DNA from: Candidatus Cloacimonadales bacterium
GTDB taxonomy: Bacteria; Cloacimonadota; Cloacimonadia; Cloacimonadales; JAFGVF01
Length of the DNA stretch: 64,000 bases
Assembly (NCBI GenBank): GCA_963662585.1
Contig: OY759729.1
Span: 1,316,947-1,380,946, forward strand
Direction of reading: 5' to 3'
Shown here: positions 24,231-64,000 of the stretch, one piece after another
How positions within the stretch are numbered: position 1 is the first letter of the stretch
How the letters are laid out: the number at the start of each line of letters is the position of its first letter
Translations under genes and position numbers: made by a program
Notes under the pieces: model-generated
What the model was told of the DNA's origin: nothing
Database searches by the model: none
The model's input: the letters and a program-made list of their open reading frames with translations, nothing else

Positions 24231-24817
24231 AATTTAGTCTCCGTAAAGTTATTAATATTAATCTATTGTAACAAGGAAGAAAAAGCCCTAATTGTGTCAA
24301 GGAAAAAGGAGATTTACATCTCGATTATGCTTCTTAACTTCCATCAAATTCAATCATAATCTAGAGGAATTACCAAAACTAACATTCTGACATATCCAAG
24401 TTTGTTAAATCAAAAAAACTTTTCATGTTACTTTATAGACTAGTTATTTTTCTAATTAAAACCATAGAGAATTGTGATTCAGTAAATTGTTAAAATGCTT
24501 CCGTAGTAGTTATAAATCCATTGCATATGGAGAATGATACTAATCTAGAAAATAAAATAAAATAAAAAAAATAAAATAGAAGAGATAGTATTTATATTAA
24601 GATCATGTATATAATTCAAAAAATAATATCCTAACACTATTATTATTATTATGTTAGAGAAACATAGAAGTGCATTATTTAATCAATGTTTCCATTTATA
24701 ATACTCAGCAGAAACTAGGAACAAGACGCACACTTACGTTTTTTTGAGCTGGTATTAACTCCCCGCAACTCTTGTTTTCTATCATAATGCAGTAAGATTT
24801 CTTAACATTACTAATGA

Positions 24818-27018: not shown

Positions 27019-27029
27019 ATTTAACCTCT

Positions 27030-27935: not shown

Positions 27936-27939
27936 TAGA

Positions 27940-31200: not shown

Positions 31201-31209
31201 CTTGTCTCC

Positions 31210-32580: not shown

Positions 32581-32999
32581 TAAAAGCTCCTTTTATCGAA
32601 GATTCTTGTTATATATATCTTTTCTTTAAAAACACCTATTTCATTTAAAATCGTTATAATAATAATATAAACTAAAGCATTAACAATAAAGTGATTAATC
32701 ACAAACATAAATATCATTGATGTTATATCTATTGTATCAAGAATAGCTAACTTTTTTATTGAAAGATAGATAGTATATATAGTATTCACACAAATATCAA
32801 TCACAAAAAACAACCAAAAATAATATCTACCTTTTATCCTACTATAAGGAATAAAATAGTAACCAATAATTAAAAAAATTATAGTTCCCAAACCAACTAA
32901 CATTGCCCGATCCATAGTAGTCATCCATGTATTGAGATTATCGGTTCCTAGTTTTGTAAGTTCTCCATATAATAAAAAATATACTATTTTATAAAGCAT
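32580..32999 (-). CDS. Small 4-TM membrane protein, unknown function
   Basis: 139 aa with about four hydrophobic helices. It starts 1 nt after the upstream stop and its own stop overlaps the next start. Confidence 0.55.
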   Translation of the reverse strand: MLYKIVYFLLYGELTKLGTDNLNTWMTTMDRAMLVGLGTIIFLIIGYYFIPYSRIKGRYYFWLFFVIDICVNTIYTIYLSIKKLAILDTIDITSMIFMFVINHFIVNALVYIIIITILNEIGVFKEKIYITRIFDKRSF

Positions 33000-33000
33000 T

Positions 33001-34281
33001 CTATTTCCTTTTATTAATTTTTAAGTAATACTCACTATTGCATAATTGCCCACTAACTAGCATTTTTTCATTAATTGCTTCAATTAATGAACTGATTTTA
33101 TATGTCTTTTCTTTATTTTCTAAAATACTATCATCTTCAGTGTTATTCAGATAAACCCATTTATATTTATCAATACTATCCCGAAAAGTTAATCTACATA
33201 AATACTCTCCAATCGAAGAATCCCCAAAAGGTAACAAAAAAGTTATCTTTTTTCCCTGATTACCAGAAATCACATTCTGAGAATTAAGATTAATCGACCC
33301 ACTATATTTGGAATTTACTGAAACTAATGAATCTGTTATGTTTATTATTTTATAATCAATAACATTTCCTATATCATAAGTAAAGTTTTTCAAAGTTATT
33401 CGTAAAGAATCAGCATTTTCATTCAAATTATACTCAGTCAATGGGATATTTTCAAATTGTTTATTCATATAAAAGGTAGGTGGAAAATTATAGCCATCAA
33501 TATTATCAGAATATTTTAGATTGTTTGTCATTTTCTCACTAAATCTAATTGAAAAATCGAAAATATTTTTTACTTTCTTATTAATGAGATATTCGCTATT
33601 ACTTCTACCTATGAATAACCCATAAATAGGTCTTTTTATTTGTAATACTTTAGGAAGATATTGCTTCTTTGCTTCTGAATAATAGTTTCCTAAAAAATCA
33701 ATTTTTTTCATATAAATATTTAAGAAACCTTTTTTTGCAACCAGATCCGAAAGTTTAGCTGGAAATAATTGAGAATCGATTTCTGAGTATTCAGTTGATA
33801 GGATAAGATCTGTTAAAATTAAGTAGACAGAGTTAAAGTCATCTTTTTCAATAAAATCTATAACTTTTAAAAAATTGGTATATTGGTCATCATATTTCAA
33901 ATGTTTCTCATTGTTTTTATCAGGCTTGATGTAATAAATTGATTCCGCAATATCACCTTCAATTTCTTTAATACTAGATCCAAAAGTATATAATTTAATA
34001 TCTTCATTGCTAAAATTGCTACATATTGAAGAAATTAATCCTACCATACTACTATTACCAGTTGTATATCCTTTCATTGTTGCACTTACATCAATGAAAA
34101 TCTTCATACTCTTTAATGAGTCAGAAGTTGAAGGTTGATAAACTCCGAAATATTCATTTAACACTGATAAATTTTCTTTTTTATCTTCAAATAAATTACT
34201 ATCGTTAATTCCAGTATACTTATTACAACTAATGAGCAATGCCAATAAACATAACATAAAAATGAATGATTTCACAGTCAT
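33001..34281 (-). CDS. vWA-like lipoprotein (start revised to internal ATG)
   Basis: The lipoprotein signal MTVKSFIFMLCLLALLISC starts at the ATG at 34281, preceded by a GGAGA RBS. A candidate promoter lies inside the longer listed ORF. vWA/MIDAS-like motifs occur in order: KIFIDVSATMKG (DxSxT), IKLYTFGSS, YTNFLKVIDFI, VYLILTDL. Confidence 0.55.
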   Translation of the reverse strand: MTVKSFIFMLCLLALLISCNKYTGINDSNLFEDKKENLSVLNEYFGVYQPSTSDSLKSMKIFIDVSATMKGYTTGNSSMVGLISSICSNFSNEDIKLYTFGSSIKEIEGDIAESIYYIKPDKNNEKHLKYDDQYTNFLKVIDFIEKDDFNSVYLILTDLILSTEYSEIDSQLFPAKLSDLVAKKGFLNIYMKKIDFLGNYYSEAKKQYLPKVLQIKRPIYGLFIGRSNSEYLINKKVKNIFDFSIRFSEKMTNNLKYSDNIDGYNFPPTFYMNKQFENIPLTEYNLNENADSLRITLKNFTYDIGNVIDYKIINITDSLVSVNSKYSGSINLNSQNVISGNQGKKITFLLPFGDSSIGEYLCRLTFRDSIDKYKWVYLNNTEDDSILENKEKTYKISSLIEAINEKMLVSGQLCNSEYYLKINKRK

Positions 34282-34309
34282 TATAATCTCCATTTTACTT
34301 AGTATACAA

Positions 34310-34338
34310 ATTAATAAAGGCATATCTTTTTTTGTCAA
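34310..34338 (-). promoter_or_regulatory. Candidate sigma-70 promoter of the seven-gene operon
   Basis: The minus strand reads TTGACA (34338-34333), 17 nt, then ATTAAT (34315-34310), about 25-30 nt upstream of the ATG at 34281. Confidence 0.4.
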
Positions 34339-34450
34339 GAGTTTATTTATTAGTAATAAAAATTTGGCATCATAATTGAATCATAACAATATAACTATCT
34401 ATATTAACAATGAAGATTTATTAACTAAGCTAACATTTAACACAAATCGA

Positions 34451-36556
34451 GTAGGGTGGTGCGTTAGCACCATCCCTCTCACAGAACCGTGCGTACGGGA
34501 CTCGTACACGGCTCCTGATAAACCTTGTAATTATTCATAATAATTAAATAAAACACTTGTAGGTTTCGATAGTAAGTCATATAGCCCTAATTGCTCAAAC
34601 CATTCATTAGGTAAAGCTCTATGAATATGATAACAACCAGAATTCCTCCAATGTGTCATAGATATTTTCGGAAAATCACTTTTATGCCCAACTCTTCTAA
34701 GTTGTTGGTGAAAAGCTTTCCAACTTTTCCATTCCCGCATTTTCTTCATTCTTAGTCGCCGCCTTATCCATGATAATAGAGACTGAAAGACTCCTTTGCA
34801 ATTTGCCACCCTAAAGTAATTCGACCAACCTCTCAATATCGGATTAAGTCTTTTAATCATTGTCTGGACATTAATTCCGCTATTCCGTGGAGTCAGTGAC
34901 CGAATCTTATCTTTGAACGCTTTTACTCTTTTATCCTCTATCTTTACATATGATTCATGTATTTCGAAGCCAAGATACTTGACTCCTTTAAATACACTCG
35001 CAATATGTGTCTTTTCTTCATTTACGATGAGATAAATTGAGTTTAGATATTCTACCGCAATTCGTTGATATTGTTCTGCTTTTTTCTTAGTCTTAGCAAA
35101 AAGTAAAATGTCATCAGCATAGCGTACTATCTCGATTCCTCGACTTTTCATTTCTTGGTCAAAACTATCAAGATATATGTTCATAAGAAGTGGAGAGATT
35201 ACCCCTCCTTGTGGACTTCCTACTTCAGTTTCGCTATACTTCCCTTCTTGCATAACACCAGACTTTAAGATTTTCTCTATCAACTTTAATAATGTTCCGT
35301 CACTTATTTTCCTATTTAATGATTGCATTATGAATTTATGATTTAATGTATCAAAACATTTTGATAAATCCATATCCACTACAAAAGGAAGCTCTTCCTG
35401 AACCATTAATATATGTGCTTTAGCCACTGCCTTTTGACAACTTTTGTTGGGACGGTAGCCATAGCTTTGTGGATGAAAATCAGGTTCAAAAATTGGTTGG
35501 ATGATGTTATTTATTGCCTGCTGTACGATTCTATCTTTTACAGTAGGTATTCCTAATGGCCTCATCTTACCATTTCCTTTAGGTATCTCTACCCGTTTCA
35601 CAGGTGATGGGATATACTTCCCACTTTTCAATTCTAAATGAATCTGCTCTAAGTTCTCTTGTAGAGTCTCACCAAACTTAGATATAGTAATATTATCTAT
35701 ACCTTCTGCACCTCTATTTTTCTTTACCTTTAGGAAAGATTCATAGAGATTACCTTTTGAGTAAACTTTATCAATTAAACTGTACCACTTTTTCATTTAG
35801 TTTCTCCTTTTTCACAATAAACAATGTTTAAATTATACTTTCAAATGACAGTTAATTCAATGAAGACCTTCGAAGTTTTTAGCATAAAGCAATCTATCAA
35901 AGATTTTATAGGTTTTGACTATTATCCTTTTTTTAACTTCATCTACTCAGTCTCGTAAGGTCATGATAGAAAGAAGGTACTCACCACCGTCTATCCGAGC
36001 CTTGAATCTTTCGATTCTCTTCGTTTCCTACTTTTAAGAAAATATCTCTTTAATTATGTTTATTCTTTGGTTTATCTTCATCCCTTCACATGAGATATTT
36101 CCTTTTGAAAAATATCCCCCAATATTACTAAGAATATTGTCCCCTCTGTTTTATCCTCCAGTCTGTCACCAGCTTTCATAGGCAAAGGGTTAGTCACTAC
36201 TACGGAATCATCTGCCACCTGCTTATGCTTAATACAACTCTTGCCTTTCAGCTTGTAGTCATAGTTACTCTATTAGAGACATTAACAGGCTTCCCCAGTT
36301 AAGCTATCCTGCCTGAATGTAAATCCATCTGTTGTAATCCATGTAATCGACTGACTTTTGGGCGTTCTCACTTTTCGAAGAGTTACCCACTACATGAACC
36401 AAAATCAGTTTACTTTCGCTATGTTCCACATTCTTCCTGCGTCTTACTTCAGACCCTGCCGTTGCCAGCAACGCCCTTGACCTCAGATTGACTTCCTGTC
36501 AGTTGGGTGTCAGGACTTCTTTCAGTCCATCGGCTCAGATAACATTCTGGGCAAAC
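34451..36556 (-). mobile_element. Group II intron (full length, ORF in domain IV)
   Basis: On the minus strand, domain V GAGCCGUGUACGAGUCCCGUACGCACGGUUC (AGC triad) and a domain VI-like hairpin ending ...CACCACCCUAC at about 34451 directly follow the RT ORF. The GC-richer structured 5' part runs to about 36556 (GUUUGCCCAGA..., resembling the GUGCGCCCAGA-type 5' end). The 5' boundary is uncertain by about 10 nt. Confidence 0.8.
34531..35796 (-). CDS. Group II intron reverse transcriptase/maturase (no endonuclease domain)
   Basis: RT motifs including YADD (VRYADDILLF), RPLGIPTVKDRIVQQA and a maturase X motif (RGWSNYFR). At 421 aa there is no C-terminal HNH domain. Confidence 0.9.
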   Translation of the reverse strand: MKKWYSLIDKVYSKGNLYESFLKVKKNRGAEGIDNITISKFGETLQENLEQIHLELKSGKYIPSPVKRVEIPKGNGKMRPLGIPTVKDRIVQQAINNIIQPIFEPDFHPQSYGYRPNKSCQKAVAKAHILMVQEELPFVVDMDLSKCFDTLNHKFIMQSLNRKISDGTLLKLIEKILKSGVMQEGKYSETEVGSPQGGVISPLLMNIYLDSFDQEMKSRGIEIVRYADDILLFAKTKKKAEQYQRIAVEYLNSIYLIVNEEKTHIASVFKGVKYLGFEIHESYVKIEDKRVKAFKDKIRSLTPRNSGINVQTMIKRLNPILRGWSNYFRVANCKGVFQSLLSWIRRRLRMKKMREWKSWKAFHQQLRRVGHKSDFPKISMTHWRNSGCYHIHRALPNEWFEQLGLYDLLSKPTSVLFNYYE

Positions 36557-36610: not shown

Positions 36611-37690
36611 TTACTTTCCGTAGATTTTAGCTTCTTCTAAACCTTTAAGAACTCTAATTCCACCTTGACATAAAGCTTCCATCTCTTTTTCACCAGGGAA
36701 AAGCTCGATTGGAGCAATGAATTTAACTCTATCAGAAATAGTTTCTACAATCATATCATTATATACTAAGCCACCGGACATAAAGATAAGATCAACTTTT
36801 CCCTTAAGAACAGTAGCACAAGAACCAACTTCTTTAGCTACTTGATAGCACATTGCATCCTGAATTAATTTAGCTTTTTTATCGCCATTTTTAATCATTT
36901 CTGCAACATCTCTACCATCATCGGTACCTAAATAAGCAAGATATCCAGCTTTTTTAGATAAGTAGCCTAGTAATTCTTTCTTTGTATATTCACCAGAATA
37001 ACACATTTCAATAAGATCACCTATTGGTAAAGCACCTGCTCTCTGAGGAGAGAAAGGTCCCATTCCGAGAAGAGCATTATTAACATCCACAACTCTACCA
37101 TCTTTGATAGCAGCAACAGAAACACCACCACCCATGTGAATACCAATCATATTGCATTCAGAAAGAGGCTTGCCTAATTTTTCAGCTAATAAACGAGCTA
37201 TATATCTAATATTTAAAGCGTGAAAAAGTGATTGTCTTTTAATTTCAGGAATACCAGAAACTCGAGCAATTTCATCAAATTCATCAACCACAACAGGGTC
37301 AACGATATAAGCAGGAATACCATAATCGTTAGCTATTGATTCAGAGATAAAAGCTCCTAGATTAGAAGCGTGAATTCTTCCCCATAAAGCAGGGTCACTA
37401 AGATCTTTCTTCATCTCTTCATTAACAGTATAAGTTCCACCAGCTATAGCCTTCATTAGACCACCTCGGCCTACTACAGCAACTAAGCTTTTTGGATCTA
37501 CGCTGTTCTCTGCCATTGCTTCTAAAACTAACTTCTTTCTGTAATCATACTGCTCAATTATGCCACCAAAATTGTCTAATACTTCAGCATCATGTCTTAA
37601 TGTTTTAGTAAAAACTTCTTTGTGATCATCATAAACTGCGATTTTTGTTGATGTTGAACCAGGATTAATTGCTAATACGCGATTTTCCAT
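36611..37690 (-). CDS. buk: Butyrate kinase
   Basis: MENRVLAINPGSTSTKIAVYDD... and the overall acetate/butyrate kinase pattern. The start is revised to the ATG at 37690 with a GGAGGA RBS. The listed 56-aa extension is low-complexity read-through of the upstream region. Confidence 0.85.
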   Translation of the reverse strand: MENRVLAINPGSTSTKIAVYDDHKEVFTKTLRHDAEVLDNFGGIIEQYDYRKKLVLEAMAENSVDPKSLVAVVGRGGLMKAIAGGTYTVNEEMKKDLSDPALWGRIHASNLGAFISESIANDYGIPAYIVDPVVVDEFDEIARVSGIPEIKRQSLFHALNIRYIARLLAEKLGKPLSECNMIGIHMGGGVSVAAIKDGRVVDVNNALLGMGPFSPQRAGALPIGDLIEMCYSGEYTKKELLGYLSKKAGYLAYLGTDDGRDVAEMIKNGDKKAKLIQDAMCYQVAKEVGSCATVLKGKVDLIFMSGGLVYNDMIVETISDRVKFIAPIELFPGEKEMEALCQGGIRVLKGLEEAKIYGK

Positions 37691-37786
37691 AATTCCTCCA
37701 TTATTTAATTTTATCTTTTCCCAAAAAAATAGATACAGGGAAATATGGTCAAGAAGTAATTGAATAAAATTTTTATCTTGATGTAA

Positions 37787-37821
37787 GAGAATTGAGAATT
37801 TAGAATTGAGAATTGAGAATT
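37787..37821. repeat. Five tandem heptamers GAGAATT (one TAGAATT)
   Basis: Read directly: GAGAATT GAGAATT TAGAATT GAGAATT GAGAATT, located 97-131 nt upstream of the buk ATG. Confidence 0.85.
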
Positions 37822-37859
37822 CACACGAATTATCGCTTATTAAAACAAATTTCACCAAT

Positions 37860-39772: not shown

Positions 39773-40843
39773 ATGAAAACTTATAATTGGGATAATTTAT
39801 CCAAAAATGATATGATAGAATTAATATCCACTAATGATAAGCTTTTACTTCAAAAGATGTATGACGAAGCTTACAAAGTGAAATTAAGATATGTAGGAAA
39901 TACTGTTTATTTCCGTGGTTTAGTAGAGTTTAGTAATATCTGTACCAAAGATTGCCTTTACTGTGGAATTAGAAAAGGTAATGATAGAGTTGATAGATAC
40001 TGTCTTTCCAAAGAAGATATTTTACAGTCTGCAAAATGGGCTCATGACCATAACTATGCCTCCTTTGTTTTGCAATCTGGTGAAAGAACAGATGAAGAAT
40101 TTGTTTCTTTTGTAGAAGAGGTATTATACGAAATTAAAGATAAATATGGATTAGGTGTAACTCTTTCTCTAGGGGAAGAGAGTCGAGAGACTTACCGTAG
40201 ATGGAGAAAAGCAGGGGCAAGTAGATATCTACTTAGAATTGAAAGCTCTAATCCTGAAATTTACAAACTAATTCATCCAGAAGAGTGTGATTTCCAGGCC
40301 AGACTTCAAGCAATAGAAGATTTGAGAGCTGAAGATTATCAGGTTGGAACTGGAGTTATGATAGGCCTACCAACTCAGACTGCTGAAGATTTAGTCAATG
40401 ATATTCTCTTTTTCAAAGAACATGACATTGATATGATAGGTATGGGACCTTATATTGTACATCATGATACCCCAATGGCTGCCATGATGAAAGATTATGA
40501 TCCTGCTCATCAATTGGAATTAGGACTTAAAATGATAGCTTTAACTAGACTTTATCTCAAGGATGTTAATATTGCTTCTACAACAGCTTTACAAACTTTA
40601 GATTCCCTTGGTAGAGAACGAGGTATCTTGGCTGGAGCTAATATTTGTATGCCAGTTGTTTATGAATCTGTCAATAGAAAGAACTATCTGCTTTATGATA
40701 ATAAACCTGCTCTTACAGAAACCAGTGAAGAAAATATGAAAGCTTTTGAGAAATCTATTCATCGCATTGGGGAAAATATCGGTTACGGGGTAATGGGTAA
40801 TTCTCCTCACTATAAAAAGAGAAAGGAAGCGAATAATGGCTAA
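39773..40843 (+). CDS. hydE: [FeFe]-hydrogenase maturase HydE (radical SAM)
   Basis: EFSNICTKDCLYCGIRKGN (CX3CX2C), VTLSLGE, RYLLRIESSNPEIY and FFKEHDIDMIGMGPYI match the HydE pattern. Confidence 0.85.
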   Translation: MKTYNWDNLSKNDMIELISTNDKLLLQKMYDEAYKVKLRYVGNTVYFRGLVEFSNICTKDCLYCGIRKGNDRVDRYCLSKEDILQSAKWAHDHNYASFVLQSGERTDEEFVSFVEEVLYEIKDKYGLGVTLSLGEESRETYRRWRKAGASRYLLRIESSNPEIYKLIHPEECDFQARLQAIEDLRAEDYQVGTGVMIGLPTQTAEDLVNDILFFKEHDIDMIGMGPYIVHHDTPMAAMMKDYDPAHQLELGLKMIALTRLYLKDVNIASTTALQTLDSLGRERGILAGANICMPVVYESVNRKNYLLYDNKPALTETSEENMKAFEKSIHRIGENIGYGVMGNSPHYKKRKEANNG

Positions 40844-42044
40844 AGTTCCACGCGGTGAAAGGTTAGTTCTTACTCTAATAGGTAAAAGAAATGCTGGTAA
40901 ATCGTCCCTGATTAACGCCATGACTGGTCAAGAAATCTCCATTGTTTCAGATACTCCAGGAACCACAACAGATCCAGTTGCAAAAGCTTATGAATTGCTT
41001 CCTCTTGGTGCTGTTACTATCTATGATACAGCAGGTATCGATGATGTGGGAGATTTAGGTGAGCAAAGAGTCAAGAAAACCCGTAAGATTCTCTTCAGAA
41101 CAGATGTGGCAATTGTTGTTACTGATAGCACAGAAGTTGATAATGATTTACAGAAGATTATTGTTGATCTCCAAGTAATGAAAGTTCCTTTTATTGTTGC
41201 CTTTAACAAGAATGACCTTAACCCTCTTCCTAAAACAACCAGAGAATTTTGTAAAAGTAATAATATTCCCTTTACTTCTGTTTCCGGAACTAGCGGAGAT
41301 GGGGTGAAAATGCTGAAGGAGAAACTTGTTACTTTAGTACCGTCTTCTCTCACTCATGAAAATAACTTAGTTTCAGATTTACTTCGTCCTGGCCAACTTG
41401 TAGTCTTGGTTGTTCCTATAGATTTGGCAGCTCCTAAAGGGAGATTAATTCTTCCTCAAGTGCAAGTACTTAGAGAAGTTTTAGACTCTGATGCGGTAGG
41501 TATTATCGTTAAGGAGAGAGAATTAGAGAAAGCTTTGGCAGGATTAAGTAGAAAACCTGACCTAGTAATAACCGATTCTCAAGTAGTTCTAAAAGTAGTG
41601 GGAGATATTCCTCCTGATGTAAGATTCACTACTTTTTCCACTCTTTTTGCTCGTTATAAAGGTGATTTTGAAACACTTATCAATGGTGCCAAGGCTATCG
41701 ACAAACTCAAAGATGGTTCTAAGATTCTTATTGCCGAAGCATGTTCTCATCATACTCAAGCTGATGATATTGGGACTGTAAAAATTCCCCGTTGGATGAG
41801 ACAGTTTACCGGCAAAGAACTTATCTTTGAAAAGAGTGCTGGAAATGACTTTCCTGAGAATTTGGAAGAATATGACTTAGTCCTTCATTGTGGTTCATGT
41901 ATGCTTAATCAGATTGAGATGAAACGCAGGATTATGGAGTGCGAACGCAGAGGTGTGCCAATCTCTAACTATGGAATAACAATCTCTAAGCTTCACGGAG
42001 TCTTAGATAGAGTCATCGAACCTTTCTTTATGAGAAGCAAATAA
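40836..42044 (+). CDS. hydF: [FeFe]-hydrogenase maturation GTPase HydF
   Basis: G1 GKRNAGKSSLINA, G3 DTAG, G4 NKND, and C-terminal cluster-binding Cys motifs (EACSHH...HCGSCMLN). It overlaps the hydE stop by 8 nt. Confidence 0.85.
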   Translation: MAKVPRGERLVLTLIGKRNAGKSSLINAMTGQEISIVSDTPGTTTDPVAKAYELLPLGAVTIYDTAGIDDVGDLGEQRVKKTRKILFRTDVAIVVTDSTEVDNDLQKIIVDLQVMKVPFIVAFNKNDLNPLPKTTREFCKSNNIPFTSVSGTSGDGVKMLKEKLVTLVPSSLTHENNLVSDLLRPGQLVVLVVPIDLAAPKGRLILPQVQVLREVLDSDAVGIIVKERELEKALAGLSRKPDLVITDSQVVLKVVGDIPPDVRFTTFSTLFARYKGDFETLINGAKAIDKLKDGSKILIAEACSHHTQADDIGTVKIPRWMRQFTGKELIFEKSAGNDFPENLEEYDLVLHCGSCMLNQIEMKRRIMECERRGVPISNYGITISKLHGVLDRVIEPFFMRSK

Positions 42045-46285: not shown

Positions 46286-46903
46286 CTATTCGTCTTCCTT
46301 TTCCAATTCAGGTTTAACTATTTTTTCATAACAACTAGGGCAGATACTATGACTAAACTGAGTATCTGAGTGGTCACTGATATATAGTTCTAAATCCTGC
46401 CAGACCTTATTATCTACTCTGACTTTTTTGCAATAGGAACAGATGGAAATCATTTTCTCTAAGTTTCTAATTCTATCTAAGCTTTCTTCTAATTGCTGTC
46501 TTTGGTATTCCATTTTCAGAGCAGATTTTACTCTAAGCATTAACTCAATATGATTAAAAGGCTTGCTAATATAGTCCATAGCTCCCAAATTAAAACTCTT
46601 CTTTAAGGGTTTCATTTCATCAGCAAGGGGAAGAGCTGTAATTACGATAACAGGAATATGTTTCCAAGCATTTCTTTGCTTAAGAATCTCTAAAATATCA
46701 TAACCACTTAACTCAGGCATCATAATGTCTAACAAAAGGATATCAGGTTTATTCTTTTCCATACCGGCAAGTAATTCATTACCATTATTGAGTAGGGTCA
46801 AATTATAGAATCCGTTTTGGTTCAAAATAGCCTTTATTAATCTAAGGTTAATCGGGTCATCATCAACGACATAGATCAACATATTTTCTAACTGTTTATC
46901 CAT
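46286..46903 (-). CDS. Response regulator: receiver domain plus C-terminal Cys-rich (zinc-ribbon-like) domain
   Basis: Receiver (YVVDDDPINL...DILLLDIMMPELSG...KPF), then ICSYCKKVRVDNKVWQDLELYISDHSDTQFSHSICPSCYEK. Confidence 0.8.
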   Translation of the reverse strand: MDKQLENMLIYVVDDDPINLRLIKAILNQNGFYNLTLLNNGNELLAGMEKNKPDILLLDIMMPELSGYDILEILKQRNAWKHIPVIVITALPLADEMKPLKKSFNLGAMDYISKPFNHIELMLRVKSALKMEYQRQQLEESLDRIRNLEKMISICSYCKKVRVDNKVWQDLELYISDHSDTQFSHSICPSCYEKIVKPELEKEDE

Positions 46904-56139: not shown

Positions 56140-56325
56140 ACTTCGCAATCATTACGGACTCATTGGCAGGTTTCCTGACTTGTAGCGAGTAATATTTATA
56201 AGTGCCTTCCCGGGTAATTATCCAGTGACTCTTAATACTCATAATTGCTACTTACAGTGGCGAAGACCGTTCCCGATTCTAACGGGATTCCCTTTTACTC
56301 TTGCACCAGTGAGTTACACATTTTA
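56140..56325 (-). promoter_or_regulatory. Cobalamin (B12) riboswitch
   Basis: The minus strand reads ...GGTGCAAGAGTAAAAGGGAATCCCGTTAGAATCGGGAACGGTCTTCGCCACTGT...AGTCAGGAAACCTGCC. It contains the conserved core and B12-box of the cobalamin riboswitch family and lies in the 5' leader of the ABC/TonB operon. Confidence 0.85.
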
Positions 56326-56432: not shown

Positions 56433-57497
56433 ATGCAAAATGAATTCAATCAAGAGTTAAAGAGACTAATTGATGATATGAATAGCAGTTTAAGATCTGT
56501 GATTTTGGATAAACAGTTTGAGATTGCACCTTATACTAAAAGTGCAAATTCAGAAAAACGGCGTGAAGCAAGTTTGAAAGATATAGGCTATAATCTATCT
56601 TACCTAGCTCAGGCAATTGAATTAAATTCACCTGCACCATTTATCTCTTACTCCAAATGGTTGAAAGGCCTAATGCTAGATTTAGGATTTTCAATAACTT
56701 CTATTGTTGAAAATTTCGAAGCAATGAAGATTGTTCTTTTAGAAACTTTCCCAGTAGACTATCATCATATTATTGGAGAATATATAGATAAGGGACTTGA
56801 GGAGTTAATGAGAGAATATGTACCTGAATCAAGTTATATTGACCCTTCAAATCCTTATGGTAAATATGCTCTGGACTTTCTTTCTTTTGCATTAGCAGGC
56901 AAGAGACATGAAGCATCTAAATTGATTCTCTCCTTAGTGAAAAAGAGAATACCTATTAAGACTATATATTTAGATATTTTGCAAAAAGTTCAATATGAGG
57001 TCGGGCACTTGTGGCATACAAACAAAGTAAGTATAGCCCAAGAACATTATATTACCAGTTTAATTCAATTAGTTATTTCCCAATTATACCCTTATATTCT
57101 TAATCAAAACCCTAGCAATAAGACTTTAGTTGCAGCCTGTGTTAGTGGAGAATTACATGAAATAGGCATAAGAATGTTGGCTGATATCTTTGAAATTGAG
57201 GGCTGGAATACTTGGTATTTAGGCTCTAATTTACCAGACAAAGAAATTGTTAATATGATTAAAGAAAAAAAACCAGATGTTATCGCCCTATCTGTTACCA
57301 TAATGTTCCATTTAGATAAGCTAACAAAACTAATCAAGCAAATTAGAGATGCAGGTATCATGACACCTATTATGGTAGGTGGCTATCCTTTTAATCATGA
57401 CGAGAATTTGTGGAAAAAAGTTGGTGCTGATGGTTGGGCAATGGACCCTGAACATGCTCTCGAATATGCAGATCATTTAAAAACTTTAGTAGGATAA
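56433..57497 (+). CDS. Standalone cobalamin-binding-domain protein (B12-binding_2 + B12-binding), copy 1
   Basis: ExHxxG lower-ligand motif (SGELHEIG), followed by ALSVT and MVGGYPF in canonical spacing. The preceding helical bundle has LWHTNKVSIAQEHY. There is an extra ~130-aa N-terminal domain. Confidence 0.7.
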   Translation: MQNEFNQELKRLIDDMNSSLRSVILDKQFEIAPYTKSANSEKRREASLKDIGYNLSYLAQAIELNSPAPFISYSKWLKGLMLDLGFSITSIVENFEAMKIVLLETFPVDYHHIIGEYIDKGLEELMREYVPESSYIDPSNPYGKYALDFLSFALAGKRHEASKLILSLVKKRIPIKTIYLDILQKVQYEVGHLWHTNKVSIAQEHYITSLIQLVISQLYPYILNQNPSNKTLVAACVSGELHEIGIRMLADIFEIEGWNTWYLGSNLPDKEIVNMIKEKKPDVIALSVTIMFHLDKLTKLIKQIRDAGIMTPIMVGGYPFNHDENLWKKVGADGWAMDPEHALEYADHLKTLVG

Positions 57498-57507
57498 AAC
57501 AACTATA

Positions 57508-58596
57508 ATGAGAAAAGCAATATTTGCCCTAAAATGTACAACTTTAGGTGTTATAGATAAGATTATTTTTAACAATTCCAATAAGATAGATATTCATCCA
57601 GGACAGAAATTTGTTGAACTTTTCGATGAAGCAACTTATGAGAAAGCCCAAGCTTTCTTTCTACAGTCTAAAAAAACCGATGAATGCAGTTATTCTGAAT
57701 ATGAACTATTCGTTCCTACTAAGGAAGAATTTTGTTTGTTATATTTTAAAAGCCTGGCCGTTGATGACTACTACCTTATCATTGCTGAAGAAGAAGAGAA
57801 TGATTATTATCAACTATTTGGTAGTTTGACAAGTATTAATAATGAGTTAATTCTCACCCAAAAAGCACTGAATAAAAAGAATAAAGAGCTTTTAGAAGTT
57901 AATGAATTAAAGAACCGTTTAGTAGGTGTGGCAGCTCATGACTTGAGAAATCCCATCTCTGTAATTTATAGCTATAGTCAGTTACTGCTTGAAGATTGTA
58001 GAGATAAAGTAGAAGAAGATAATTATGAATTTATCGATAATATTAATTCTACAGCAAAATTCATGTTAAGTCTTGTAGAAGAATTATTGGATTTGACTTA
58101 TTTAGAATCTGGTAAGGTAAGTCTAAAAACTGAGAATGTTGATTTCTGTGATCTTTTCGATGAAAATATAAAATATGCAATTACTTTAAGTGCAAAAAAG
58201 AATATTAAGATTGAGGCAAAAAAGCCAGAGTATGAAATATCGGTAAAAATAGATAGAAATAAGATTCAGCAGGTAATTAGCAATTTTATCAGCAATGCAA
58301 TTAAATATTCTGATCAGAACTCAAAAATAGTCATTGCCTGTGAAATAGTTAATAATAATGTAATATTTTCATGTAAAGATGAAGGTTACGGCATTGATGA
58401 TAAAGAATTTGACCTAATCTTCGAACCTTTCAAAAAAGCTAATTCAAGTCAGTATATACAAGAGCAGTCAACAGGTTTAGGCCTAACAATATCCAAGCAA
58501 ATCATTAAAGCCCATAATGGGAGTATCTGGTTAGAGAGTCAAGTTAATAAAGGCTCTACTTTCTATTTTTCTTTGCCCTTGTTAATGATTCCCTAG
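57508..58596 (+). CDS. Soluble sensor histidine kinase, copy 1
   Basis: H-box VGVAAHDLRNPIS; HATPase_c N/G boxes (NFISNAIKYS, DEGYGI, GLGLTISKQII). There are no TM helices. Confidence 0.85.
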   Translation: MRKAIFALKCTTLGVIDKIIFNNSNKIDIHPGQKFVELFDEATYEKAQAFFLQSKKTDECSYSEYELFVPTKEEFCLLYFKSLAVDDYYLIIAEEEENDYYQLFGSLTSINNELILTQKALNKKNKELLEVNELKNRLVGVAAHDLRNPISVIYSYSQLLLEDCRDKVEEDNYEFIDNINSTAKFMLSLVEELLDLTYLESGKVSLKTENVDFCDLFDENIKYAITLSAKKNIKIEAKKPEYEISVKIDRNKIQQVISNFISNAIKYSDQNSKIVIACEIVNNNVIFSCKDEGYGIDDKEFDLIFEPFKKANSSQYIQEQSTGLGLTISKQIIKAHNGSIWLESQVNKGSTFYFSLPLLMIP

Positions 58597-58734
58597 GCTA
58601 TTTAAAAACATTTTACAATGAAATTACTTAAGAAGTGTATAATCAAAATTTACTTTCGGAGAACAAGAAAAATATTGACACAGAATTAGTTTAACTTATT
58701 ATTATATTAAAAGAAACATATTGGTGGAATAGAT

Positions 58735-59805
58735 ATGGATAAAGATTTATATCATGAATTAAAAGTATTATTAGATCTAAATAATTTTAAATTACGATCA
58801 CTTATCTTAAAAAAACATTTTGAAATGTCTCCGGAGCTAACAATAAAGTACTCCGAAAAGCAAAAAAATTATTATTTAAGAGATATTGGGTTTAACTTAT
58901 CTTATTTAGCCCAAGCAATTAATCTACAGTCACCTAATTTATTTAGTTCTTATTCTAAATGGTTGAAGAATTTAATGCAAAACTTGGGTGTTTCTCTTCC
59001 CACCTTAATTGCCAACTTTCAAGCAATGTCAGAAGTATTGAAAAATGAGTTTCCCTCCTGTTATCATGAAATAATTTCATCTTATATTGAAGAAGGGACT
59101 CAGATGTTAACTCAAGAGATTATGGAAAAATCCACTTTGATAGATCCAACTAACCATTATAGTAAGTATGCTGAAGAATTTCTCCTTTATGTGCTAAATG
59201 GTAGGAAGTCAAATGCTTCAGAGCTTATACTATCTTTAGTTAAGAATGGTGTATCTATCAAGAAAATATATATCGATATATTACAACAAGTTCAATATGA
59301 AATTGGTCATCTATGGCAAACAAATAAAATTAGTATTGCCCAAGAACATTATGCCACTAGTGTAACACAATTAGTAATTTCCCAAATGTACCCTTATCTT
59401 TTTACTGGGAAACATAAGAATAAAGTTCTTTTAACTTCTTGTGTTAGTGGAGAATTACATGAAATAGGATTAAGAATGCTTACAGATATTTTTGAGATCG
59501 AGGGCTGGGATACTTGGTATTTGGGGGCAAATCTACCTGATGAATCAATTATTGAAATGGTTAAAGAAAAGAAACCAGATATTATCGCCTTATCTGTTAC
59601 TGTAATGTTCTATTTAGAAAAGCTTAAGAGTTTGATTGAAGAAATCAGAAAAGCAGGAATTACTACTCCAATAATGGTAGGAGGATATCCATTTATCAAT
59701 GATAAGCATTTATGGAAAAAGATTGGAGCAGATGGCTGGGCAATAGATCCCGAAAGAGCACTTAATGTTGCAGATAAATTAATCAAAACTGCAGGAAGTG
59801 AATAA
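58735..59805 (+). CDS. Standalone cobalamin-binding-domain protein, copy 2 (paralog of 56433..57497)
   Basis: It is collinear with copy 1 (roughly 60 percent identity by eye) and has the same SGELHEIG, ALSVT and MVGGYPF motifs. Confidence 0.7.
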   Translation: MDKDLYHELKVLLDLNNFKLRSLILKKHFEMSPELTIKYSEKQKNYYLRDIGFNLSYLAQAINLQSPNLFSSYSKWLKNLMQNLGVSLPTLIANFQAMSEVLKNEFPSCYHEIISSYIEEGTQMLTQEIMEKSTLIDPTNHYSKYAEEFLLYVLNGRKSNASELILSLVKNGVSIKKIYIDILQQVQYEIGHLWQTNKISIAQEHYATSVTQLVISQMYPYLFTGKHKNKVLLTSCVSGELHEIGLRMLTDIFEIEGWDTWYLGANLPDESIIEMVKEKKPDIIALSVTVMFYLEKLKSLIEEIRKAGITTPIMVGGYPFINDKHLWKKIGADGWAIDPERALNVADKLIKTAGSE

Positions 59806-60997
59806 TATGAGAAAAATCTTACTAGCCTTAAATTGTGATCTCACAGGAGTAATAACAGAAGTAGTTATTAATAAAATATCAAATTATCAAATCAAGATAG
59901 GGACTACTTTTGTGGAATTGTTTGATAAAGCAAATTACGAAAAAGCTCAGATATTTTTTCTTCAATCAGTCAAGTTAGAGGATAGTTTATATGATGAACA
60001 AGAATTATTACTACCAACAAGAAATGATACTTTTTTATTATATTTTAAAGGACTCTTAATTGGTGAGCAGAATTTAATTATTGCTGAAAGTGAAGAGAAA
60101 GATTATTTAAATCTTTTTGGAACATTAACCAGCATAAATAATGAGTTAAACAATGTTCTAAGAAGTTTGTATAAAACTACTCTTGATAGTCAATCCAGTA
60201 GCTTGAAAAGCGATAAAATGCTCTCAGATTTTTCCAAATTAAACAATGAATTAATTGAAACTCAAAATATTCTAAAAGTTAAGAATCTTGAGTTATCTAA
60301 AATCAATGATTTAAAGAACAAGTTAGTTGGTGTAGCAGCACATGATTTGAGAAATCCCATTTCTTTAGTCTATAGCTATAGCCAGTTGCTTCTAGAAGAT
60401 TACCTTGATAAAGAAAATGAAGAAGCCCAAGAGTTTATAGGAATAATTAATTCAACATCAAAATTCATGTTATCTTTAGTTGAAGATCTGCTTGATTTAT
60501 CCTATTTAGAATCAGGTGAAGTTATTTTAAAACTAGAAGTTTGTGATTTTAAAGCCATTTTCTGTGAGAATATAAATTTTGCTAGTACTTTAGGAGCTAA
60601 AAAAGGAATTAGAATTGTCTCAGAAAATCCTATAGCAAGTATTTATGTGAACATCGACAAAAACAAGATTCAACAAGTAATAAATAATTTTGTTAGTAAT
60701 GCAATAAAATATTCACACCCTAATTCTACTATTTATATTTCTTGTTATCTAAAAAATGATGAGTTAATTTTCTGCTGTAGAGATGAAGGTTTTGGTATAA
60801 GCTCAAATGAGTTTGAAATAGTATTCGAACCTTTCAAAAAAGCAAAGTCGAGTCAATACATCAAAGAACAATCAACAGGTTTAGGTTTAGCAATTTCCAA
60901 ACAAATCATTAAAGCCCATAATGGTAAAATTTGGTTAGAGAGTCAAGTTGATAAAGGCTCTACTTTCTATTTTTCACTACCATTACATAAAGAATAA
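59798..60997 (+). CDS. Soluble sensor histidine kinase, copy 2 (paralog of 57508..58596)
   Basis: H-box VGVAAHDLRNPIS and HATPase_c motifs. It has a ~37-aa insertion before the H-box relative to copy 1 and overlaps the upstream gene by 8 nt. Confidence 0.85.
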   Translation: MNNMRKILLALNCDLTGVITEVVINKISNYQIKIGTTFVELFDKANYEKAQIFFLQSVKLEDSLYDEQELLLPTRNDTFLLYFKGLLIGEQNLIIAESEEKDYLNLFGTLTSINNELNNVLRSLYKTTLDSQSSSLKSDKMLSDFSKLNNELIETQNILKVKNLELSKINDLKNKLVGVAAHDLRNPISLVYSYSQLLLEDYLDKENEEAQEFIGIINSTSKFMLSLVEDLLDLSYLESGEVILKLEVCDFKAIFCENINFASTLGAKKGIRIVSENPIASIYVNIDKNKIQQVINNFVSNAIKYSHPNSTIYISCYLKNDELIFCCRDEGFGISSNEFEIVFEPFKKAKSSQYIKEQSTGLGLAISKQIIKAHNGKIWLESQVDKGSTFYFSLPLHKE

Positions 60998-61022: not shown

Positions 61023-61060
61023 AAATCAAGCCCTACTCTTGCAGGGCTTGATTTATATTT
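61023..61060. terminator. Bidirectional hairpin terminator between convergent genes
   Basis: AAATCAAGCCCT-actcttgc-AGGGCTTGATTT followed by ATATTT. Confidence 0.7.
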
Positions 61061-61115: not shown

Positions 61116-62375
61116 TTATTCTCCTCCCATACCAAAACTAAAGGTGAGAATTGTCTGTTCATTAGTGAAGTTATAGGCTACTCCGAATCCCAAAGCAGGA
61201 ATAGCTACTTTATCAAAATATATTTTTAGTTCACTTCCAATCCCGTGATATTTCTCATTAAGTCCGTCATTATGATAATATCCTCCTTCATAGTAGTAGG
61301 AAAGAGTAGGATTTAGTTTATGTTGACTAATTAAAGTGTGTTCTACAATAAAAGCTCCATTGATCCAATCATCAGCCCAAATTTTCATATTAGGAAGAGA
61401 TTTTGTCCCATGATAGGTGCTTAAGACATCTTCAGCATTATCAGGTCTATCGAATAAGCCAATAGTGTTTTTGACTTTAAAATTAATCTTGGAATCGTAA
61501 GTTTGGGAATAAGATAATTTGGTGTAAGAACGGAAGAAATCATCATAATTATCATCTAAAGAAAAAACTCGAGAAGTTAGAGATTCGGCTTGAAATCCAT
61601 CTCTAAAGAGAAAGTTCTGGCTAGTATTATCATACTTTACTAATAAACCAGGGTAGAGTAAATTTGCGTCTTTTTCCAAATTACCCTCTTCATTATCCAT
61701 TTTGATTTTTTGCCACTCCATATCAGGCCCAATAGTAAGTTTCTTATCAAGGAATTTCTTCCCAATGCTTGCCCCAAAATTTATTGTTTTCTGCTTACTC
61801 TCATAATAGGCAGGGTTTTCAAAAATATCGCTCATTTCAATTTCATTAGTACGATAATTAATTATTAATTTACCTGAATATTCATTATTGAGCATTTCGT
61901 CTTGAGTTAGAAGGATGAAAGTTGTAATATCATTTTTACCAAAAGCTCCAACTCCAAGCAAGGTTGCCCCGTATCCCCAGAAATTACTATCTAAGGCAGC
62001 TCCACCATACATTTTATCTCCATCAACCGAATTAAAGAAAGGAACAGCAAAGAGGGAGAATTTTTCTGCTACAGTAATTATCATAACTGCTTCATTTTCA
62101 GTTGGGAAAAATTCAACTACCTTATCTAAGGCAAAAATCTTTTTATCATCAATTCTTTTATAGATATTTTGCACATCATATTCTGATATGAAATTATCAT
62201 TACTTATTCCTATCCATTTGATGAATGTTTTTTCTGTAGTTCTTCTAAGTCCATTTACTGTTATTTCAGTTACTTTCCTATCTCCATATTGTTCAATAAA
62301 TTGTTTTTGTTCAAGAGCAAAATTACTTATTGCAATTAAGGATAGCAGTAACATTAAAATTATCTTTTTTGACAT
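61116..62375 (-). CDS. Omp85/BamA-family-like outer-membrane beta-barrel protein with one POTRA-like domain
   Basis: Signal peptide, a POTRA-like segment (VTEITVNGLRRTTEKTFIKWIGI), and alternating aromatic beta-strands ending ...ILTFSFGMGGE. Confidence 0.5.
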   Translation of the reverse strand: MSKKIILMLLLSLIAISNFALEQKQFIEQYGDRKVTEITVNGLRRTTEKTFIKWIGISNDNFISEYDVQNIYKRIDDKKIFALDKVVEFFPTENEAVMIITVAEKFSLFAVPFFNSVDGDKMYGGAALDSNFWGYGATLLGVGAFGKNDITTFILLTQDEMLNNEYSGKLIINYRTNEIEMSDIFENPAYYESKQKTINFGASIGKKFLDKKLTIGPDMEWQKIKMDNEEGNLEKDANLLYPGLLVKYDNTSQNFLFRDGFQAESLTSRVFSLDDNYDDFFRSYTKLSYSQTYDSKINFKVKNTIGLFDRPDNAEDVLSTYHGTKSLPNMKIWADDWINGAFIVEHTLISQHKLNPTLSYYYEGGYYHNDGLNEKYHGIGSELKIYFDKVAIPALGFGVAYNFTNEQTILTFSFGMGGE

Positions 62376-62729
62376 TTAAACCTCTTTTATTAATAATTTC
62401 GTCATATTTTTTTGTTATTCATTACCGTCAAGATTTTGTTAAACCTACAATATAAAATAATAAAGCATTAGTATCAGTTTCCAAATTATTATTGATATAT
62501 TTTTTAATTGACATATTATACATCGATTTTAAATTTATAAAAAACATATTTTAACCTGAATGCTGCAGTAGAGCTTTACAGAAGAGTGCAGATTCTTTTA
62601 GATAAAGGTTTTACAGAATTTATCAGCCTATAATATATATACTCTGAGAAATTATGTAAAATGCTTTAGCAAATGAATATAGTGCTATTCTAAAAGATCT
62701 ACTGCATTATTTGGGTTTAAAGGGATATT

Positions 62730-64000
62730 ATGAAAAAAGTGCTGATTATTGATGATAACAGAGATATTCATACTGTTTTAGAAGGCTTATTAAGTTCTAA
62801 TAAGAACTTAAGTTTTTTTCATGCTTATAACGGTATGGAAGGATATCATAAATTACAGCAAATAGAACCTGACTTAGCAATTCTAGACAACCAGATGCCA
62901 GTAATGTCGGGCTTTGAACTATTAGAAAAATTGCAAAGGGAGAATAAGAAATTCCCTATTATAATGCTAACTGCCTTTGGTCAGATTTCTGATGCTGTTC
63001 AGGCAATTAAATTAGGAGCAATTGATTATCTTACTAAGCCTTTTAATGATGAACAATTTAATCTCATTATTAATAAAGCCCTTAAAATCGGTAGTCTTAA
63101 AATTAAATCAAAACAGGTTAATAACTATAATTCAGTCCAGCAAGCTAATCACACTAAATATAATATTATCGGTGAAAGTAGAGTCTTTAAAGAACTACTT
63201 AAGAATGCTCAACTAGTGGCTCCTACAGATATTACAGTTATTGTTAATGGAAGTAATGGTACAGGGAAAGAGGAGATAGCTAAGTATATTCACTATAATA
63301 GTGAGAGGAGTAATAGACCATTTATAGCAATAGATTGTGGAGCAATTCCTGAGAATCTGTTTGAAAGAGAGATGTTTGGCGCTGTTAAAGGTGCTTATAC
63401 AGGAGCAGACTCAGATTCTACGGGTTTCTTTGAAGCTGCTAATGGTGGAACAATCTTTATGGATGAAATTGGTAATCTGCCAACTTCGGCTCAATCTTCT
63501 TTGCTAAGAGTATTACAGAATAAAGTTTTTCGCCGAGTAGGTGGATTAGAAGAGCTTACTGCTGATGTTAGATTAATTTCAGCGACCAATGCTAAGCTCC
63601 TTGATGAAGTAAGTAAAGGACATTTTAGGGAAGATCTCTTTCACAGAATTAACGGTTTTGATTTAACTATTCCTGATTTAAAAGATAGAAAAGAAGATAT
63701 CCCCCTTTTGGTAAATTATTTTATTACTAAATTCAATGCAGAATTAAAACGCAATGTTCAGCAAATTTCCCCTGAAGCTAGTGAGATATTAAAGAATCAT
63801 GCTTGGACTGGTAATATCAGAGAGCTTATTAATACTATTCAAAAAGCTGTATTACTTTGCTCTAATTCAACCCTTAAACCAAAACATCTTAATATTACTC
63901 CTTCAGAAGAAATAAAAGATTTTAAAAAAGAGAGCGATTTTATCAATGATATCATCAATAAACCTATCTCCATTGCAAAGAAGATAGAAATCTTTGAGAA
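62730..64000 (+). CDS. Sigma-54-dependent response regulator (NtrC family), 3' end cut by window edge; absent from the ORF track
   Basis: I translated from the ATG at 62730 by hand and found no stop to nt 64000. Receiver (MKKVLIIDDNRDIH...LDNQMPVMSG...TKPF), AAA+ core (GSNGTGKEEIAK, GAYTGA, IFMDEIG, REDLFHRIN). Confidence 0.8.
   Translation, partial: MKKVLIIDDNRDIHTVLEGLLSSNKNLSFFHAYNGMEGYHKLQQIEPDLAILDNQMPVMSGFELLEKLQRENKKFPIIMLTAFGQISDAVQAIKLGAIDYLTKPFNDEQFNLIINKALKIGSLKIKSKQVNNYNSVQQANHTKYNIIGESRVFKELLKNAQLVAPTDITVIVNGSNGTGKEEIAKYIHYNSERSNRPFIAIDCGAIPENLFEREMFGAVKGAYTGADSDSTGFFEAANGGTIFMDEIGNLPTSAQSSLLRVLQNKVFRRVGGLEELTADVRLISATNAKLLDEVSKGHFREDLFHRINGFDLTIPDLKDRKEDIPLLVNYFITKFNAELKRNVQQISPEASEILKNHAWTGNIRELINTIQKAVLLCSNSTLKPKHLNITPSEEIKDFKKESDFINDIINKPISIAKKIEIFE

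Follow-up and report, generated by a model that had tools for sequence, protein, structure and literature searches.

The window analysed here is a 64,000-nucleotide (nt) stretch of the genome of a Candidatus Cloacimonadales bacterium (GCA_963662585.1, contig OY759729.1, positions 1,316,947–1,380,946), and the subject is a two-gene module found twice in tandem at positions 56433–60997. Each copy encodes a protein of about 355 amino acids (aa) followed by a histidine kinase. The ~355-aa proteins are, judged by sequence, photocobilins with an N-terminal globin, and are thereby members of a predicted light-sensing family. The two modules probably form a split pathway in which a photocobilin signals to a PAS-domain kinase and the kinase to an NtrC-type regulator, with light as the likeliest signal. 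From the observed domain identities, residue conservation, gene coupling and fusions we infer cofactor binding, a response to light, PAS docking and the identity of the regulator. The genes named here come from annotation of about 21.6–64 kb of the 64-kb stretch.

The listed open reading frames (ORFs) comprise four collinear sequences, all on the plus strand, which form two sensor-kinase pairs:

56433–57497, plus strand: photocobilin 1, 354 aa
57508–58596, plus strand: kinase 1, 362 aa
58735–59805, plus strand: photocobilin 2, 356 aa
59798–60997, plus strand: kinase 2 as listed from GTG, 399 aa
59807–60997, plus strand: kinase 2 from ATG 59807, 396 aa

This is the arrangement described in an earlier, sequence-only reading of the window, which had proposed two collinear pairs of a ~355-aa protein and a soluble kinase. 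A lack of transmembrane segments had also been claimed for the kinases, and none is predicted in any of the four proteins (maximum Kyte-Doolittle 19-residue mean ≤1.6). However the 8-nt overlap reported for pair 2 applies only if kinase 2 starts at GTG 59798. The ATG at position 59807 is the likelier start. It displays a Shine-Dalgarno-like AGGAAG (59793–59798) 8 nt upstream, aligns with the MRK start of kinase 1, and yields the 396 aa chain length of database entry P0126. Pair 2 then probably has a gene spacing of 1 nt, compared to 10 nt in pair 1. The genes of each pair are tightly coupled whichever start of kinase 2 applies.

Sensor proteins and cofactor residues

The domains of photocobilin 1 are as follows:

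aa ~1–127 (nt 56433–56813): photoglobin
aa ~146–222: B12-binding_2 four-helix bundle
aa ~223–354: Rossmann B12-binding domain

Photocobilin 2 has the same three domains. The two cobalamin-related domains had been recognised in the sequence-only reading, and both Pfam families are found in both proteins, i.e. PF02607 (B12-binding_2, E-values 2.3e-11 and 5.5e-13) and PF02310 (B12-binding, E-values 1.8e-21 and 2.3e-20). The motifs that it listed are all present, namely the SGELHEIG-type His-ligand motif (G239-E-L-H242-E-I-G), ALSVT and MVGGYPF. A MerR helix-turn-helix is absent from the sensors in the Pfam search. With the NCBIfam CarH model the score is 48.8 bits, where the cut-off is 400 bits, and the match is confined to the cobalamin-binding domain (CBD).

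The extra N-terminal domain noticed earlier is real, but its identity had been missed. It matches the published photoglobin, a phycobiliprotein-like, bilin-binding globin, and it is because of this domain that the ~355-aa proteins are assigned to the photocobilins. The PF00502 (Phycobilisome) match is weak in the single sensors (E-values 1.9e-3 and 3.3e-4, below the gathering score); the same family matches 19 of 22 aligned family members, with a best E-value of 7e-11, and is also recorded for many homologues. The family profile matches allophycocyanin and phycocyanin chains over residues 7–125, with E-values down to 2.6e-8. The same profile detects the cobalamin and globin domains of the photocobilin structures PDB 8J2W/8J2X, with an independent E-value of 4e-4 for the SasPcob globin. 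These photocobilins are the best PDB sequence matches as well (phmmer, E = 7e-31). The AlphaFold2 model of photocobilin 1 has a mean predicted local distance difference test score (pLDDT) of 89.8, and residues 1–126 are all-helical at high pLDDT. Its best Foldseek match is again 8J2W (E = 3.4e-11). The fold also matches 8J2Y and 8JBS and is similar to the CarH/LitR-type structures 5C8A, 8C31 and 3WHP.

The identity of the window sensor to the crystallised photocobilins is about 25–29%. The domain order of the crystallised members, with the cobalamin domain first and the globin last, is not kept, and the globin is at the N-terminal end here. The permuted order does not exclude membership since it is included both in the photoglobin survey (Schneider et al. 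2022, PMC8717448) and in the photocobilin study (Zhang et al. 2024, PMC10979010).

SasPcob numbering is offset by +6 from the phmmer alignment, an offset fixed independently by His108, Trp61 and Glu71-His72. The comparable residues are:

SasPcob His108, cobalt ligand: window H242
SasPcob Trp61 and Glu71-His72, adenosyl cap: window W194 and E204-H205
SasPcob Asp270, biliverdin contact: window D50
SasPcob Trp296, biliverdin contact: window W76

D50, W76, W194, E204, H205 and H242 are invariant in 22 homologues of 38–77% identity, and photocobilin 2 retains these residues as well. The lower axial His sits in an E/DxHxxG loop (E240-L-H242-E-I-G245). The light-responsive CBD signature GxxW/EH/GxxH/GxxxP was defined with SignatureFinder (PMC11796333), and all four elements are present in both paralogues, at G191-H-L-W194-x9-E204-H205, G239xxH242 and G264xxxP268.

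A CXQD-type motif, with Cys three residues before Asp, was noted by Rockwell et al. 2023. At this D-3 site (position 47) most family members have Cys, as do the orthologues of photocobilin 2 in its own clade (type 2, below); photocobilin 1 has Ser and photocobilin 2 has Tyr. SasPcob displays Thr at this site in the alignment and binds biliverdin non-covalently (PMC10979010), thus non-covalent binding of a bilin is plausible here. The window photocobilins are predicted to bind adenosylcobalamin (AdoCbl) and a biliverdin-like bilin.

Kinases, gene coupling and fusions

The domains of kinase 1 are as follows:

aa 1–98 (nt 57508–57801): predicted PAS fold
aa 99–134: coiled coil
aa 135–205: dimerization and histidine phosphotransfer domain (DHp/HisKA), with H144
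aa 206–362: HATPase_c

Kinase 2 consists of a PAS domain, a long coiled-coil linker, a DHp domain and a catalytic domain. Pfam E-values for kinases 1 and 2 are 1.1e-13 and 3.5e-14 for HisKA, and 6.7e-26 and 5.3e-25 for HATPase_c. Both are class I (HisKA) kinases with the phospho-acceptor His and the N, G1, F and G2 boxes intact, and the motifs AAHDLRNP, NAIKYS, DxGxGI, FxPF and TGLGL vary little or not at all across the kinase family alignment.

The N-terminal domain of the kinases had been called unknown. With respect to Pfam this is correct, as residues 1–136 of kinase 1 give no match, and no PAS match appears even at an E-value of 10. However an AlphaFold2 model of residues 1–135, built on a 44-sequence alignment, displays two strands, two helices and three strands followed by a long helix, with a pLDDT of about 90 over residues 1–50 and of 70–95 up to residue 100. 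The top Foldseek matches of this region are ARNT PAS-B, RpfR and FixL (probability 1.0, E-values down to 1.9e-4), and the AppA-PpsR2 complex 4HH3 is also among the PAS fold matches. By this model, the domain is a PAS fold that Pfam misses. PAS is joined to DHp by a conserved coiled coil with two NNE(L/Q) motifs. The linker of kinase 1 and its orthologues is shorter by exactly 35 residues than that of kinase 2 and the wider family. This is five heptads, thus the heptad register is kept.

A survey of one genome per species found at least 585 photocobilin loci (individual loci are designated below by L numbers). The best 80 are from Cloacimonadota, Chloroflexota, Acidobacteriota, Desulfobacterota, Bacteroidota, Thiotrichaceae and methanogenic archaea. 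An HMM (hidden Markov model) of the PAS domain only matches the ORF directly downstream of the photocobilin in 67 of 79 loci with sufficient sequence, and the gap between the two is mostly −6 to +40 nt. Co-occurrence of the gene pair across genomes, which the sequence-only reading had set as a check, is thus found in many phyla. When kinases were picked by kinase sequence, a photocobilin gene was directly upstream of all four, and likewise of P0143. A search with the PAS-linker module against 1.84 billion representatives gave 290 clusters, where the module is nearly always at the extreme N-terminus, mostly of ~400-aa proteins.

The output that follows the PAS-linker downstream of photocobilins varies. 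It is of the GGDEF type in L078, L019 and L037 (GGDEF, PAS-PAS-GGDEF and GAF-GGDEF), HisKA_3 in L076, HisKA_2 in L072, another kinase class in L035, L055, L057 and L071, and a hybrid kinase with a receiver domain (REC) in L050 and L056. As judged from these sequences, the PAS-linker behaves as a portable photocobilin-associated input module.

Fusions of the two proteins are also found. In L023 (775–2724) a single reading frame joins the photocobilin to the linker and kinase core, without PAS. By its HKcore HMM score (1e-106, vs ~1e-50 for unrelated kinases in the same loci), this core falls in the subfamily of the window kinases. There are dozens of diverse fusion clusters, of the photocobilin-kinase (~645–670 aa) and photocobilin-kinase-REC (~790–805 aa) types, and most are too short to hold a PAS domain. 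Acidobacteriota and Planctomycetota have many related fusions (P0389–P0503), of ~650 aa or, with REC, ~795 aa. The kinase downstream in L017 is without PAS. The general pattern is that PAS is present when sensor and kinase are split and absent when they are fused, and the simplest reading is that PAS may serve as a docking adaptor for the separate sensor. The earlier suggestion of a standalone B12 sensor that feeds a soluble kinase is strengthened in silico by the CarH-type signature, the gene co-occurrence and the natural fusions.

A different arrangement is displayed by L085 (2915–8186 of CAZAEK010000005.1, GCA_964484125.1), where the genes that come directly after the photocobilin and PAS-kinase pair encode a REC-PAS protein, a KaiB homologue and a KaiC-like double ATPase, and then a REC-PAS-kinase. 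A Kai-type timing system outside the cyanobacteria may receive its light input in this way.

The two pairs and their neighbourhood

The sensors are 60% identical over 354 aa without gaps, and the kinases are 58% identical with one 35-aa gap, which is close to the 60 percent estimated by eye in the sequence-only reading. Identity between the paralogues differs by domain:

globin: 50%
PAS: 50%
linker: 64%
four-helix bundle: 66%
Rossmann domain: 67%
kinase catalytic domain: 67%
DHp: 76%

This pattern suggests that sensing and partner recognition diverged while the downstream regulator, as we infer, is shared. Neighbour-joining trees of the sensors and of the kinases are congruent, each with two clades:

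type 1: short linker, Ser at position 47; window pair 1, L002, L005, L006, L007
type 2: long linker, Cys or Tyr at position 47; window pair 2, L001/L008, L009

Both types are found together only in the window genome and in the metagenome-assembled genome (MAG) JAEKNW01, which has L005 and L009. Type 1 and type 2 pairs hold the same chromosomal site in different genomes. A second full-length photocobilin was not detected within the fetched flank of any of the 84 other loci (L001–L084). The distribution fits an old tandem duplication of the whole module in this Cloacimonadales lineage followed by differential loss. In JAEKNW01 the two pairs are on separate small contigs, and a ~90-bp repeat is common to the end of L005 (~2480–2590) and the beginning of L009 (~10–105). 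The head of L005 matches window positions 62550–62717 in inverted orientation. Either the locus is differently arranged in this MAG or the assembly is broken at the repeat.

Further features around the pairs are:

56148–56325, minus strand: full-length cobalamin riboswitch aptamer (Rfam RF00174, 86.6 bits, E = 5.6e-20)
58675–58702, plus strand: sigma-70-like promoter match, TTGACA-16-TATTAT, 11/12 positions, in the 138-bp spacer before pair 2
61023–61054, plus strand: intrinsic-terminator-like hairpin after kinase 2, with a 12-bp stem, 5 G-C pairs and a T-rich tail
62730–64000, plus strand: NtrC-type response regulator (REC and sigma-54 activator AAA+), cut by the window end

The sigma-70-like site before pair 2 is the best in the region. 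However sigma-70 and terminator scans gave counts not above the shuffled expectation, and the promoter-like site is for this reason only suggestive.

The riboswitch leads a minus-strand operon that encodes an ATP-binding cassette (ABC) ATPase (ABC_tran) and a TonB-dependent receptor (Plug/TonB_dep_Rec) and resembles a B12 uptake operon. The pairs are divergent from it, as had been described, and the riboswitch does not control them, being on the opposite strand in front of the ABC/TonB genes. Its adjacency to the pairs is real but is conserved only within close Cloacimonadales relatives: the riboswitch is also upstream of the pair in L002, L006, L007 and L008, and not in L010 or L012. The Cloacimonadales genomes of L001/L008, L002, L006 and L007 have one pair each at the same site with the same flanks, i.e. 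the riboswitch-led ABC/TonB operon upstream, and an opposite-strand 419–420-aa protein and the NtrC-type regulator downstream. In a more distant Cloacimonadota clade (L003/L010, L012) the pair is kept but the flanks are lost.

The NtrC-type gene at 62730 (Pfam Response_reg, E = 4.3e-28; Sigma54_activat, E = 3.1e-63) had been named as a candidate partner of the kinases and gains from this synteny, as the comparable gene is 1.5–1.7 kb downstream of the pair in L001/L008, L002, L006 and L007. A scan for sigma-54 sites (TGGCAC-N5-TTGCW, ≤2 mismatches) gave 23 matches vs 14.5 expected, none of them in the intergenic regions around the locus. No cognate regulator common to the whole family emerges, as REC neighbours vary by phylum (single REC, hybrid kinases, NtrC type or none), and the NtrC synteny of this one clade is the only usable lead.

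Between the genes for kinase 2 and the NtrC-type regulator, positions 61116–62375 (minus strand) encode a 419-aa protein with a signal-peptide-like N-terminus and no Pfam match. It is conserved, at 420 aa in L001 and 419 aa in L002. It may reside in the outer membrane and is a possible target for the regulator. A second response regulator, at 46286–46903 (minus strand), has a REC domain and a short Cys-rich tail (CxxC ... CxxC, zinc-ribbon-like) with no recognised output domain, and adjoins genes for an S41 protease and an extracytoplasmic function (ECF) sigma factor. It had been named as the other candidate partner and is set aside here; within the 10-kb flanks of L001 or L002, no gene with a REC domain is found upstream of the pair. 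A group II intron is at 34446–36471 (minus strand), just downstream of an acetate-kinase-like gene (36611–37858); Rfam places D1–D4 at 36304–36471 and the 3′ catalytic domains at 34446–34516, and the reverse transcriptase/maturase ORF is at 34531–35796. The region ~24000–34400 (minus strand) has a GC content of 25–28% compared to ~32% elsewhere and adjoins an OmpA-like gene. Five large ORFs in it (524, 301, 1086, 456 and 445 aa) have no Pfam match. This may be an island or a surface-protein cluster.

Proposed pathway, alternatives and known systems

In the proposed pathway the photocobilin would bind AdoCbl base-off/His-on, with H242 as the ligand and W194 and E204-H205 as the cap over the adenosyl group. 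Its N-terminal globin would hold a biliverdin-like bilin in contact with D50 and W76. By analogy to SasPcob and AbPcob, light would cleave the Co-C bond and alter the conformation or oligomeric state of the sensor. The effect of green light would be direct, and that of red light mediated by the bilin. The photocobilin would make contact with the product of the next gene downstream by docking on the N-terminal PAS domain of this kinase. The coiled coil, with its heptad register, would relay the change to DHp and the catalytic domain, where it would affect autophosphorylation at H144. The most likely recipient of the phosphoryl group is the syntenic NtrC-type sigma-54 activator, which is the candidate for both kinases. 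Because the globin, PAS and linker differ while DHp is 76% identical, the paralogues may provide two differently tuned inputs to one regulator. There is a precedent for action in trans, as standalone photocobilins modulate a separate enzyme in a light-dependent manner (PMC10979010).

Several observations weigh against this pathway. The host is a Cloacimonadales anaerobe with HydF and a radical-SAM gene nearby, and its relatives are mostly MAGs from lineages usually regarded as anaerobic. The radical-SAM protein and then HydF are encoded at 39773–42044 on the plus strand; we take these to be hydrogenase maturation genes, probably for an [FeFe]-hydrogenase, and a sign that the host is strictly anaerobic and metabolises H2. 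O2 is required for canonical biliverdin synthesis, and neither a heme oxygenase nor a bilin reductase is found among the annotated window genes or in eight related neighbourhoods that have Pfam listings. Both window paralogues are without the D-3 Cys that is common in the family. Docking to PAS is proposed from the split-versus-fused pattern, the regulator is assigned by synteny in one clade and neighbours differ elsewhere, and the sigma-54 scan shows nothing convincing near the locus. The lifestyle of the host and the lack of bilin-synthesis genes in the listed neighbourhoods also speak for a reading with the same sensor-kinase architecture but another signal, i.e. the availability or form of a corrinoid, redox state or O2 exposure in a dark anaerobic habitat. 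The forms distinguished could be apo vs holo protein, or adenosyl- vs hydroxocobalamin, with a possible link to the adjoining B12 uptake operon. Members of the family occur widely in Cloacimonadota, Anaerolineae, Syntrophaceae, Desulfomonile and methanogens, the pair is divergent beside the riboswitch-controlled uptake operon in the window and four related genomes, and AdoCbl binding alone lowered the activity of AbDPcob relative to the apo protein (PMC10979010). However no variation is seen between phyla in the residues of the adenosyl pocket and light signature or in either biliverdin contact, which counts against a simple sensor of B12 availability since such a sensor would have no need of them. 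In addition, the next Cloacimonadota clade (L003/L010, L012) retains the pair without the adjoining riboswitch, one close relative is from a Tara Oceans water-column scaffold, and the KaiB and KaiC homologues beside one distant photocobilin fit light input. A dark signal is thus considered unlikely. Equally doubtful is its extended form, where, in this host and in the many anaerobic lineages with the same pair, the photocobilin would act through PAS docking as a dark sensor of corrinoid form, bilin, redox state or O2. The two paralogous pairs, with linkers that differ by five heptads, would then feed a single sigma-54 regulator next to the B12 uptake operon with signals of opposite sign or different tuning.

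Two other explanations concern the nature of the genes themselves. That the pairs arose by a recent tandem duplication and are functionally redundant, or are an artefact of assembly, and so have no separate meaning, is in keeping with their collinearity and common architecture, but is very improbable: identity is only 58–60%, the congruent trees have two clades each with orthologues from other genomes, and the divergence is concentrated in the globin and PAS, with a linker that differs by five heptads. The ~355-aa proteins might also be metabolic corrinoid methyl carriers (MtbC/MtaC/MttC-like) with the kinases as unrelated neighbours. Many homologues are labelled "methanogenic corrinoid protein MtbC1" by JGI, and there are weak partial NCBIfam matches to MtgC, MtbC and MetH B12 domains. 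The best of these however reach 57–67 bits against cut-offs of 310–450 (e.g. 57 vs 370), methyltransferase genes are absent from the window locus and eight related neighbourhoods, and the proteins display the CarH-type W-x9-EH cap and a globin domain, are strictly coupled to signalling proteins and occur fused to them. The methyl-carrier assignment has hardly any probability and is rejected on the NCBIfam scores and gene context. The split photocobilin-kinase pathway remains the best-supported reading.

Published work already covers this family, the permuted order of its domains and the PAS, S-helix, kinase and REC genes associated with it (PMC8717448, PMC10979010). In the photoglobin survey the commonest architecture is photoglobin with B12-binding_2 and B12-binding, the globin being before or after; such genes adjoin histidine kinases, PAS and S-helix domains and response regulators, and a coupled light sensor was predicted (PMC8717448). 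Under the name photocobilin, Zhang et al. described proteins that bind AdoCbl and biliverdin, determined crystal structures and showed that light activates a diguanylate cyclase, also where a standalone photocobilin acts in trans; photochemistry was shown for two members, and the N-terminal-globin order is one of three predicted groups (PMC10979010). The window loci are thus uncharacterised members of a published type and not a new kind of system. The refinements, which are not described in the excerpts of the cited papers, are the PAS-linker partner module, the split/fused pattern, the tandem paralogues that differ by five heptads and the Cloacimonadota hosts. The excerpts of the survey do not single out one constant PAS-linker partner, a split/fused PAS pattern or tandem paralogous pairs, and Cloacimonadota are not mentioned there (PMC8717448). 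In the literature searched, photocobilins have been studied biochemically only with diguanylate cyclase output, and no study of a photocobilin-kinase pair was found.

Two natural, diverged sensor-kinase pairs in one genome are suited to tests of partner specificity, spectral tuning and linker length. The comparative pattern also provides a hypothesis for how standalone photocobilins find their target, i.e. through a downstream PAS-linker that the sensor itself replaces in fusions. The abundance of the family in anaerobes and methanogens raises the question of whether B12-bilin sensors always sense light. If the coupling holds, the pairs are possible green- and red-responsive two-component parts for optogenetics.

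Of known systems, SasPcob and AbPcob/AbDPcob (PDB 8J2W, 8J2X, 8J2Y) have in common with the window proteins the four-helix bundle, Rossmann domain and bilin globin, as well as the Co-ligand His, the W-x9-EH cap and the equivalents of Asp270 and Trp296. They differ in that the globin is C-terminal in the crystallised proteins and N-terminal here. Their partners are a diguanylate cyclase or STAS/SpoIIE proteins, whereas the partner here is a PAS histidine kinase and the host an anaerobic member of the Cloacimonadales. CarH and LitR, the MerR-type AdoCbl photoreceptor repressors, display the same type of cobalamin domain with GxxW/EH/GxxH/GxxxP and a similar structure. Unlike the window proteins, they combine it with a MerR helix-turn-helix and bind DNA, while here the output is a separate kinase and there is an additional globin.

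In AerR-CrtJ and AppA-PpsR, a standalone B12-binding or B12-like (SCHIC) sensor docks on a PAS-containing partner. These are the closest precedent for the proposed contact between a split sensor and PAS, although the partner there is a transcription repressor, the globin is absent and no relationship between the PAS sequences has been shown. Bacteriophytochromes and Cph1-type bilin kinases are similar in the overall path, where light is sensed by a tetrapyrrole and a helical linker couples this input to a HisKA kinase and response regulator. However their sensor is a fused PAS-GAF-PHY unit with a Cys-linked bilin, whereas the sensor here is a separate globin-B12 protein, and the PAS domain of the window kinases is without a recognised cofactor site.

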